Below are positions 1 to 39,496 of a stretch of 39,496 nucleotides of DNA, one piece after another. Position numbers and translations under genes: made by a program. The DNA lies in sequence record OM355495.1, one strand, 5' to 3'. Source of the stretch: Escherichia phage ZH4. The first letter of the stretch is position 1. Each line of letters begins with the position of its first letter. The notes under the pieces are model-generated. The model had not been told where the DNA came from. It saw only the letters and a program-made list of their open reading frames with translations, and did no database searches.

Positions 1-1544
1 ATGCCTTGTGTTTCCGATTCAAACCCTTCAAACGTTATTCCATTGCCACAGTTTGTAGCTATGACATTATCCACAACAATGTCAGCAACATAGCGTTTGA
101 ATCCCATAGCTCCATGAGCACAGTCCCGAAAAACAAGGTTAGACATAGCACAGTTACGACTTCCACCAGCTACACTAGAAGACAGGTAAATGCCCAAGTC
201 TCTTACGTTTTCTACGTATAAACCATTTACCCAACAGTTCTTCGTAGTAGCAAACATCAGCCCTGAGTCTGGGGCATTAACCAGAGACACGTTGGTCAGT
301 GAGCATCTATTACCACCAAAGGTGAGAATATCAGCGACCCCGAACTGGGTGTTTTTTGCTTGGTTCCCGTCAATATGTAAGTCCTTGATGTGTACATCAT
401 CAGCACCCATGTTGTGTACTAGGTAATAAGCCTTAGCGTTATCTATGCAGATATTGTCAGCAAATTTTAGCCAACCACCAGCACCCACAAGGATTGTTTT
501 ATTTTTTATCGATAAGCCTGTGAAAATCCACGGATCTCCATTCTTGTTCTTAGGCGTGATCTTAATCGCACAGTAACCTGGAACAGAACCAGCATAATCA
601 AGAGCAGCCTGCAAAGTCTGTTGATCGTTTTTGCTACCGAACATAAAAGAACGAACATCAACAAAATCGTCAACCTGTAGTTCAAGTTGCCTGCCGTCTG
701 CACGGTCAACAATAACAACACCGTCCCCAGTAGAACCCGTATTAGGAACTACGGCATACTTGTTGTAAATACCTGATGCGGTCTTAGTAGCTACTAACCG
801 TCCTTCTTCTGTGGTATTAGTTCCTAGGTTAGCAAAGGTATCCAACTCTACTGCTATACCACCAATTAAAGATGCCCCACCTGACTCCTTTAATTCTGTT
901 CTCAAGGCAGCGTCACCCACACTAACCCACGCACCTAATCCAATCCCACCGGAAGTTTCAGGAGTTGAACCAGCAGGGACGTTCTTTGGAAGCGTGCCAT
1001 CCCAGCGGTAATAATCACCATCCTCTTCCCATAGCAGTACCTCGTTCCATGTTATAACGTTGAAGCCTTTCTCGAAGGATCGACGGGTAATATAGCCAAT
1101 TAGACCGGATGCCTTGATGCTCTCAGCGATTCGTCGTGCTTCGTCCTCGCTATCCTTAGCGTTGCCAGCAGAGCTGCTAGCAGCATCGGCATATTCCTTC
1201 GCTAAGTCAACCGTTTGGTCTCGACCTTCTTCTGCAATATGGATAGCCTGAAGCTCTGCATTGGTCAGGTCACTAGCTGTCAACACTGAGCCATTCCTGA
1301 AGTCTACCACTAAGTCAGTTCCAGTCTGACGGTGAATACGAACGATGTCGAAACCTGATTGGTCAACCAACATCTCAATCATCGTTGGATTAAGGAAGCG
1401 GTAATCGCTACCAACTTCCAGTACACGGTTCAGGGTAGGGTTAGAGCTATTCACCAGCGTAACAACAACAAACGTTCTGGCTAGGTAGTCGAACTCAATC
1501 CTGTACTGAGTGTTTCCTGAAGGGAATTGTGTAATCGTGGACAT
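1..1544 (-). CDS. Tail fiber / tailspike (T7 gene 17 homolog), N-terminal part; ATG at 1544, ORF runs off the window start and continues at 39369 across the circular junction (whole gene about 751 aa)
   Basis: Own translation of minus strand from ATG at 1544 (RBS AGGAGG upstream) gives [33 protein letters not shown]..., matching the T7 gp17 N-terminal region (FEYLARKFVVVTL). Reading frame is continuous with track ORF 38658..39476 via the 127-bp overlap. Absent from the ORF track only because there is no stop inside the window. Confidence 0.85.
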
Positions 1545-1591
1545 TATGCCTCCTTTGTGATTTTAAATGGAGACCTATGGTAGCGCCTCCA

Positions 1592-1614
1592 GTTTCCTAT
1601 AGTGATAGTTTAGT
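1592..1614 (-). promoter_or_regulatory. Phage RNAP promoter (phi17-like), minus sense CTAAACTATCACTATAGGAAA, predicted +1 near 1597
   Basis: Match to the 11-copy phage promoter family in this window; sits just upstream of the gene 17 start and overlaps the gp16 stop. Confidence 0.8.
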
Positions 1615-29697: not shown

Positions 29698-29733
29698 GTG
29701 GTTTAATCTCCAGTAGTTTACGTTATGTTAGGG

Positions 29734-29776
29734 TTAATCATGAAGGCCACGACTTTGAGTCATGACCTTGAGTCTA
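29734..29776 (-). repeat. Conserved 43-bp element copy 2 (putative RNase III site, R1.1 position) between the phi1.1 promoter and gene 1.1
   Basis: Plus sense TTAATCATGAAGGCCAC...ATGACCTTGAGTCTAA; lies in the 5' leader of the phi1.1 transcript, matching the T7 R1.1 location. Confidence 0.55.
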
Positions 29777-29797
29777 ATCCTATAGTGATAGTTTAGG
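29775..29797 (-). promoter_or_regulatory. Phage RNAP promoter (phi1.1-like), minus sense CTAAACTATCACTATAGGATTAG, +1 near 29780
   Basis: Consensus copy upstream of genes 1.1-1.3. Confidence 0.8.
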
Positions 29798-37966: not shown

Positions 37967-38020
37967 AGTTGCCCTCCCGGTTTATCAGATTTCACGTAGA
38001 GTCTCCTCCACTAGTTAGTG

Positions 38021-38064
38021 TTAACCATAAAGGCCACTACACATAGTAATGACCTTGAGTCTAA
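38021..38064 (-). repeat. Conserved 43-bp element copy 3 (putative RNase III site, R18.5 position) between small terminase and the Rz-like gene
   Basis: Plus sense TTAACCATAAAGGCCAC...AATGACCTTGAGTCTAA; same element as 22090..22130 and 29734..29776. Confidence 0.55.
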
Positions 38065-38657: not shown

Positions 38658-39496
38658 TTAATTTGATATTTGTTTCCAGTCAGAACTAGTCAACCCGTGT
38701 GACTTCCACCATGAGTTAGCGCTGTCACTCCATACTTCTTGCCCTATAAAGCGAGGAATTACTGTAGCTACAGGAGTAGGGCCGGATACAACTTGATACC
38801 CATACTTAGCTGGTCCTATAGCATTGTTCAAGATAAAATCTTTAGTTATTCCTCTTGCGCCATTAAACCACTCTAGATCCGTACCGCTAATACCGCTAAT
38901 AAACTCAGGTGAAAACTTAGTGAAACTGCAGCCAGCGTTCACTCGTGCCCCGTTGTAAGCGCTATATCCACTAGCCTGCGTGTTGCTCCAGCGACCACCA
39001 ACCACACTACCGTTGCTGCAATTTAAGAAGTACGCAGCATATCTAGCGAAACCTTCCAGGTTAACGTTTACAAGCTCAAATCCTGATGCACCATTGCACT
39101 GGATGCCATCATTGTTCGGTACACCACTTGTTGCTATTTGTGGGTTAGAGGCATACCCAGTTAAATTTGCACCATTAATAAAAATGCCGGTATTGGTATT
39201 CGCACCAAAGTATATACCAACTCCAGAGCAGTTCTGAACACTCAGGTTATTGATACGAATACCACTGGCATAGTTGAAACTGATAGCTCGTTCAGCCGCA
39301 CGCACACTCCTGTACCCAAAACCAATATCACGAAGGCGTATGTTACTCATAGTGATGTTAGCTGGGTTCATGCCTTGTGTTTCCGATTCAAACCCTTCAA
39401 ACGTTATTCCATTGCCACAGTTTGTAGCTATGACATTATCCACAACAATGTCAGCAACATAGCGTTTGAATCCCATAGCTCCATGAGCACAGTCCC
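38658..39496 (-). CDS. Tail fiber / tailspike (gene 17), C-terminal part with right-handed beta-helix (pectate-lyase-like) domain; continues upstream across the window junction (39370..39496 duplicates 1..127)
   Basis: Track ORF 38658..39476 is in frame with the minus-strand ORF from 1544. Repeated beta-helix-like rungs ([48 protein letters not shown]) typical of phage tailspike depolymerases. Confidence 0.85.
   Translation of the reverse strand, partial: DCAHGAMGFKRYVADIVVDNVIATNCGNGITFEGFESETQGMNPANITMSNIRLRDIGFGYRSVRAAERAISFNYASGIRINNLSVQNCSGVGIYFGANTNTGIFINGANLTGYASNPQIATSGVPNNDGIQCNGASGFELVNVNLEGFARYAAYFLNCSNGSVVGGRWSNTQASGYSAYNGARVNAGCSFTKFSPEFISGISGTDLEWFNGARGITKDFILNNAIGPAKYGYQVVSGPTPVATVIPRFIGQEVWSDSANSWWKSHGLTSSDWKQISN
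39370..39496. repeat. 127-bp exact duplicate of window positions 1..127 (circular-assembly overlap, lies inside gene 17)
   Basis: Direct comparison of the window ends; ORF-track coordinates confirm an offset of 39,369. Confidence 0.9.

Follow-up and report, generated by a model that had tools for sequence, protein, structure and literature searches.

A Kayfunavirus tailspike with a beta-helix receptor-binding module acquired by recombination

In the record of Escherichia phage ZH4 (OM355495.1), the single tailspike gene is divided between the two ends of the sequence, and only the beginning of its product resembles the tail fibre of phage T7. This raises the question of what the rest of the protein is, from where it was obtained and which structure of the host surface it recognises. 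Positions given here refer to the window, the whole stretch of 39,496 nucleotides that was analysed. The answer to which the evidence points with fair confidence is a Kayfunavirus tailspike of three modules, in which a beta-helix receptor-binding module acquired by recombination would bind and cleave a polysaccharide, most likely an O-antigen.

Gene 17, its genomic setting and its three modules

The two ends of the window are identical over 127 nt (1-127 and 39370-39496, 100% identity, at a spacing of 39,369), so that the genome is a circle of 39,369 bp and the window is a circularised Kayfunavirus (K1F-like T7-family podovirus) genome plus an overlap of 127 bp. A terminal repeat of the T7 type was considered and ruled out: the repeated segment lies within gene 17, and the genuine ends of the genome must therefore be located elsewhere. 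With 22 kb of the backbone as query (window 1600-24000), Kayfunavirus phages PH1061 and ST31 show about 95% identity across 96-98% of its length. Gene order is T7-like, with all genes on the minus strand and one spike gene, gene 17, which is flanked by gene 16 (a 1,462-aa internal virion protein) and by the genes for the holin, small terminase, spanin and large terminase. The phage is an ordinary K1F-like member of the genus, with E. coli or Shigella as its host.

Near-identical backbones are also found under Klebsiella, Hafnia, Providencia and Enterobacter phage labels, and the record MT350292.1, 'Enterococcus phage EFA-1', matches the 22-kb query with 94% identity over 95% of its length, its Gram-positive host label looking doubtful. 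Elsewhere in the genome, a 51-nt repeat (82% identical) is present at window 29727-29777 and 38014-38064. Its minus-strand RNA would form a bulged hairpin (z about -3.9), and genes 18 and 18.5 flank the second copy, the location of an RNase III processing site in T7.

When 38658-39369 is joined to 1-1544 and reverse-complemented, a 2,256-nt ORF with one terminal stop is obtained, encoding exactly the 751-aa protein that had been proposed from the sequence alone. Alignments with homologues run ungapped over the wrap point at codon 515. The gene and its surroundings comprise the following features:

1..1544, minus strand: gene 17 (tailspike), 5' part, codons 1-514 plus 2 nt; ATG at 1544, open to base 1 and continuing over the circular junction
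38658..39369, minus strand: gene 17, 3' part, codons 515-751 plus stop; joined ORF of 751 aa, homologues gap-free over the junction
39370..39496, no strand: circular assembly overlap, an exact copy of window 1-127 and not a biological repeat
1549..1555, minus strand: Shine-Dalgarno sequence AAGGAGG, 4 nt 5' of the ATG
1596..1610, minus strand: phage RNA-polymerase promoter-like site (phi17 equivalent), 52-66 nt upstream of gene 17, matching CCTATAGTGATAGTT

The motif CCTATAGTGATAGTT is matched 11 times in the genome with at most 2 mismatches, against 0.06 matches expected by chance (window 1596, 9804, 14352, 15348, 18175, 24104, 26816, 28067, 29779, 32841 and 35644 in plus-strand coordinates, all read on the minus strand). 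These sites seem to make up the set of promoters for the phage RNA polymerase.

The gene 17 protein is composed of three modules and not of two:

1095..1544, minus strand: aa 1-150, T7 gp17-type N-terminal tail-docking domain and helical linker (PF03906; 7boz; 9vvr_A; helices at aa 95-146 in the model)
912..1082, minus strand: aa 155-211, Tail_spike_N (TSP1/gp66-type), PF18668 (Pfam, E 6e-20)
1..902, minus strand: acquired receptor-binding cassette, part 1 (gene nt 643-1544, aa 215-514), with the first rungs of the beta-helix behind a small N-terminal domain; without Kayfunavirus match, 80% aa identity to MK-13, 80% DNA identity to L002, GC 43.7%
38658..39369, minus strand: acquired receptor-binding cassette, part 2 (aa 515-751), further beta-helix rungs and a conserved C-terminal stretch of about 60 aa (alignment and P0002 model)

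The first module is recognised by Pfam Phage_T7_tail (PF03906) at aa 10-120 with 59.4 bits against a cut-off of 25.2 (E 4e-16), and by the T7 gp17 chains 7boz and 8dsp (E about 1e-16 to 1e-17), of which 7boz covers query residues 6-115; the N-terminal homology with the T7 tail fibre thus spans about 115 residues, and the search against sequences of solved structures found no similarity to T7 gp17 past aa ~120. The solved tail-spike chain 9vvr_A, by contrast, is nearly identical in alignment over aa 1-227 (454 bits). In the sequence-only reading, the gp17-like part had been limited to the first ~150 residues. With respect to T7 this is sound (match at aa 6-120), but the conserved front end extends to about aa 214, because Tail_spike_N (aa 155-211) is a second conserved module that had been overlooked, which leaves a variable part of about 537 residues (215-751) in place of the roughly 600 originally supposed. 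Tail_spike_N is common to Kayfunavirus tailspikes and to several tailspikes of the donor type (relatives P0002, P0003, P0017 and P0019).

The protein carries the module of aa 1 to ~220 (gp17 N-domain plus Tail_spike_N) that defines Kayfunavirus gp17, and its gene is situated between gene 16 and the holin gene. The Kayfunavirus gp17 tailspikes (9vvr_A, ST31, PH1061, LM33_P1 and PE3-1) agree with it over their first ~214-227 aa and also match in gene position, in the upstream phage promoter and in a tail with a single spike, whereas their receptor-binding part is unlike aa 215-751 of the protein in the window. As for function, the gp17 domain of aa 1-150 would plug the spike, presumably a trimer, onto the tail, and aa 155-211 form a Tail_spike_N module conserved throughout the genus.

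The top protein match, P0001 (UniRef, 'tail fiber' of Escherichia virus LS3, 724 aa, 1,311 bits), consists of three tandem N-terminal modules of about 240 aa and has no receptor-binding part. For this reason it was discarded as a full-length relative; the source record has probably been misassembled or misannotated.

Mosaic boundaries and distribution of the cassette

The limits of the third module can be located at the DNA level. From gene 16 onwards, PH1061 and ST31 stay 94-96% identical as far as nt ~642 of gene 17; the identity is then lost and returns 3-45 nt past the stop codon of gene 17. In 30-nt windows, identity to Kayfunavirus is 0.8-0.97 up to nt 611-640 and about 0.4 at nt 641-670, an interval in which identity to the SU10-like contig L002 climbs to 0.83-1.0. 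Homology to L002 starts earlier, at gene nt 535, within Tail_spike_N, which delimits one further feature:

903..1010, minus strand: probable crossover zone, gene nt 535-642, aa 179-214, where Kayfunavirus and donor-type homology overlap

The 5' crossover could plausibly have used the conserved end of this domain (aa 179-214, YRWDGTLPK...VSVGDAAL). The third module was acquired by recombination, with the 5' crossover in this end of the domain (aa ~179-214) and the 3' crossover just past the stop codon, that is, through a shared conserved domain on one side and the end of the gene on the other. With 43.7% GC, the cassette is the lowest among 197 windows of the same size (genome mean 49.7%, sd 1.9), and its GC3 is 37.5% versus 47.7% in the N-terminal part. 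The DNA breakpoints and the GC content together show a cassette of foreign origin in a genuinely mosaic gene, which bears out the initial description of a chimera with a gp17 tail-docking N-terminus. The phage collection contains no Kayfunavirus spike with detectable similarity to aa 215-751.

Within the cassette, window 695-874 (gene 17 nt 671-850, aa 224-283) is 83-100% identical to L002 in 30-nt windows, and identity is about 55-67% over nt 851-1000, the average for the whole cassette being 80%. The cassette itself is mosaic.

The chimera might also be explained as an assembly artefact, in which a metagenomic contig would have fused a Kayfunavirus backbone with the spike fragment of a co-occurring phage, as the contig ends and the 127-nt overlap lie inside the cassette and the complete combination of anchor and cassette has no match among 50,697 phage records or 5.8 billion proteins. 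Such a fusion is, however, scarcely credible: it would require two clean junctions, both at sensible sites (a domain boundary in a shared conserved motif and a point just past the stop codon), the reading frame is intact, the genome closes into a circle of the usual Kayfunavirus size, and the shared zone, only 67-73% identical to the closest donor-type DNA, is too divergent for merging in a k-mer graph.

The cassette has also been traced in other phages. Its relatives, 59-84% identical, stand behind six other anchors:

Anchor 1: Ackermannviridae-type tailspike N-terminus, in Agtrevirus MK-13 and ChubbyThor (both isolated on Shigella boydii)
Anchor 2: SU10-like podovirus, 72.9-kb contig with SU10-type portal and adaptor
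Anchor 3: siphovirus-like 47-kb contig with a tape-measure gene
Anchor 4: small myovirus, 39-kb contig with baseplate genes
Anchor 5: P22 head-binding domain (PF09008, E 2e-65), on spikes of prophage remnants found in 10 complete E. coli genomes
Anchor 6: spike of an IMG/VR contig, no anchor recognised by Pfam

For the last of these we assume an N-terminus of the epsilon15 gp20 type. The cassette circulates among at least seven unrelated phage groups. The scan of species-representative bacterial genomes returned no relatives, and that of IMG/VR one locus only.

A close counterpart is MK13_00101 of Shigella phage MK-13 (Agtrevirus, Ackermannviridae), together with its ChubbyThor homologue, which carries the same module with 80% aa identity over aa 217-751 and 73% DNA identity. 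It differs from the protein in the window by its wholly unlike 430-aa anchor of the Ackermannviridae TSP type, and it belongs to a 158-kb myovirus that has three other spikes besides.

Based on the alignment, the family can be divided into subtype A (the window, MK-13 and P0002) and subtype B (the prophages, P0017, P0019 and L011), which differ mainly in the central rungs (alignment columns ~200-420, window aa ~420-640). The N-terminal cap, a ladder of charged residues described below and the C-terminal 60 aa are invariant across both, and the subtypes are likely to have receptors of their own. Subtype A was found only in the two S. boydii phages and in metagenomes. One of the prophage loci, L001 (E. 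coli NZ_CP062895.1, 1855122-1866485), holds a P22-type tailspike in a degraded prophage at sbcB, along with an integrase, a few regulators and a truncated DNA-transfer protein, and lies only about 30 kb from the O-antigen gene cluster.

Fold and candidate active site

The cassette is 537 aa long (215-751) and contains 11.9% Gly and 9.6% Asn, in agreement with the Gly/Asn-rich character initially ascribed to it; its conserved C-terminal ~60 aa read PRFIGQE...WWKSHG...DW. The Pfam family Beta_helix (PF13229) is found at aa 387-507 (E 5e-6), its 26.6 bits barely exceeding the cut-off of 25.9. Fold models were built, as monomers only, for aa 1-514 of the window's own protein and for P0002 (81% identical) as a proxy of the full module. 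The first presents helices at 95-146 and beta rungs from about residue 300 (pLDDT 85-96), and Foldseek ranks the CBA120 tailspikes TSP3, TSP4, TSP2 and TSP1 as its best matches, with no fibre among them. The P0002 model has pLDDT above 85 over residues 210-600, beta-helix rungs throughout and concordant Foldseek matches, and its last ~47 residues are of low confidence.

On the basis of these models, the cassette is predicted to adopt a right-handed parallel beta-helix (the pectin-lyase-like fold). The T7 fibre, homologous at its N-terminus, continues in a shaft and a tip domain, where the protein in the window has a beta-helix; neither a shaft nor a tip domain of the T7 type was detected by the model of aa 1-514 or by sequence search, so that the expectation of a beta-helix in place of a T7-like fibre held for both modelled proteins. 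The description 'pectate-lyase-like', also proposed before, is adequate for the fold but not for the sequence, as the 751-aa protein matches no pectate or polysaccharide lyase family of Pfam at E <= 1.

The fold neighbours share 11-17% identity with the cassette and give no indication of the substrate. The beta-helix O-antigen tailspikes (CBA120 TSP2, TSP3 and TSP4, P22, Sf6, HK620 and 9NA) are only 9-18% identical, without a detected sequence relationship. The A-module of the mannuronan C5-epimerase AlgE4 (2pyg), considered together with the pectin-lyase-like superfamily (GH28, PL6 and K5 lyase), shows 17% identity and no pectate-lyase or epimerase Pfam match, and AlgE4 is a secreted bacterial enzyme whereas the protein in the window is a phage spike. 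The AlgE4 catalytic motif YG(F/I)DPH(D/E) is presumably absent from the cassette. None of the defined GH or PL families was recognisable by a catalytic motif, and the search of the module profile against solved structures found no genuine relative and no solved lyase, so catalytic residues are not transferable from a solved enzyme.

Both the model and the alignment show a series of invariant charged residues that recur in successive rungs where the long strand ends:

D392, in the motif IDGNQ
D426, in the motif NAPDSG
D449, in the motif RDLG
K483/R484, in the motif GFKRY
E506/E509, in the motif TFEGFE
D529, in the motif LRDIG

This ladder, which is kept across members only 59% identical, is a candidate active site or binding groove, and a charged ladder of this form is how the active-site groove of GH28 and of tailspike enzymes appears. 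A module acting as a non-catalytic adhesin, which would bind a polysaccharide or another surface structure without cleaving it, would account for the missing GH or PL family signature, but this is highly improbable in view of the invariant Asp, Glu, Lys and Arg of the ladder, typical of an active-site groove across so divergent a family. Short-tailed podoviruses, moreover, generally must cut their way through the O-antigen layer. Related Agtrevirus tailspikes, for their part, produce clearing zones on bacterial lawns (PMC10791037). Depolymerase activity of the cassette is therefore the favoured interpretation, one that derives from the fold, the conserved charged ladder and the analogy to characterised tailspikes (PMC10791037), with the cleavage proceeding by either hydrolysis or beta-elimination.

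Receptor class and significance for host range

The class of polysaccharide that would be attacked can be approached through the relatives of the cassette. Of the 10 E. coli genomes in which the prophage spike was found, nine share one allele of the O-antigen polymerase gene wzy (WP_063078855.1), which is itself present in only 19 of 5,426 genomes; the spike in them is of subtype B, 59-67% identical to the subtype A of the window, and the receptor of the latter may differ from the wzy-linked one on this account. The nine genomes represent at least four independent strains, from pig, chicken, human and river. A search of the literature by strain name yielded no O-serogroup for the strains with the prophage spike. 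The tailspike classes of P22 and epsilon15 characteristically target O-antigens. Within Agtrevirus, the tailspikes of AV101 degrade specific E. coli O-antigens (PMC10791037).

As the prophage form tracks a single wzy allele, and the same module is borne by temperate P22-type prophages, by Agtrevirus tailspikes and, if the anchor is assigned correctly, by an epsilon15-type spike, the receptor is more probably an LPS O-antigen than a capsule or an exopolysaccharide. The sequence-only reading had named a capsular or exopolysaccharide receptor, from which these relatives and the wzy allele lead away. A depolymerase, possibly a lyase, directed at capsule (K-antigen), colanic acid or exopolysaccharide instead of O-antigen is accordingly rather unlikely. 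The genus does include the K1-capsule phage K1F, and the spike of Kayfunavirus PE3-1 is annotated 'lyase'. Against this, the module is found on P22-type prophage spikes, on the spike with the apparently epsilon15-type anchor and on Agtrevirus tailspikes (for the last, PMC10791037), all of them classes typically directed at O-antigens, a single wzy allele accompanies the prophage form, and fold neighbours at 11-17% identity carry no information on the substrate.

Under the preferred O-antigen reading, the groove of the beta-helix would bind one particular polysaccharide on the host surface, in all likelihood the LPS O-antigen, and cleave it, which would allow the phage to work its way down to the outer membrane; the receptor-binding module would therefore set the host range.

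A more specific proposal is decidedly unlikely but would have distinct consequences: the cassette would represent a structurally and biochemically uncharacterised family of tailspike enzymes, with the AlgE4 epimerase/lyase scaffold as the closest fold neighbour, and the target of subtype A could be an O-antigen against which few phages are known, such as that of S. boydii type 1. If this were true, the window would come from a small T7-like phage directed at this serotype, and its enzyme chemistry would possibly be one undescribed for O-antigen tailspikes. A kinship between the O-antigen of S. boydii type 1 and that of E. coli O149 was considered and dropped; the wzy-linked gene cluster has no annotated pyruvyl transferase. 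Among the strains tested, MK-13 lyses S. boydii type 1 only (PMC6853846), a specificity that is not attributable to the cassette-bearing spike, since MK-13 has four tailspike genes.

Exchange of this kind is not without precedent, and module swapping is a well-known route by which phages change host. TSP4 of Agtrevirus AV101 and gp17 of Kayfunavirus ST31 share one receptor-binding domain (PMC10791037), which represents the same phenomenon as in the window with another domain, the ST31 spike being unlike the cassette described here. Cassette exchange, including that between Agtrevirus and Kayfunavirus, has thus already been published, and the understanding of tailspikes is unaltered; the protein is a new combination of known parts, and the novelty left lies in the uncharacterised cassette family.

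Gene 17 would be the host-range determinant of the phage, and the cassette may be of use for host-range engineering or prediction and, once its receptor is known, as a serotype-specific reagent. Its unusually clean breakpoints show a receptor-binding cassette on the move among podoviruses, siphoviruses, myoviruses and prophages.
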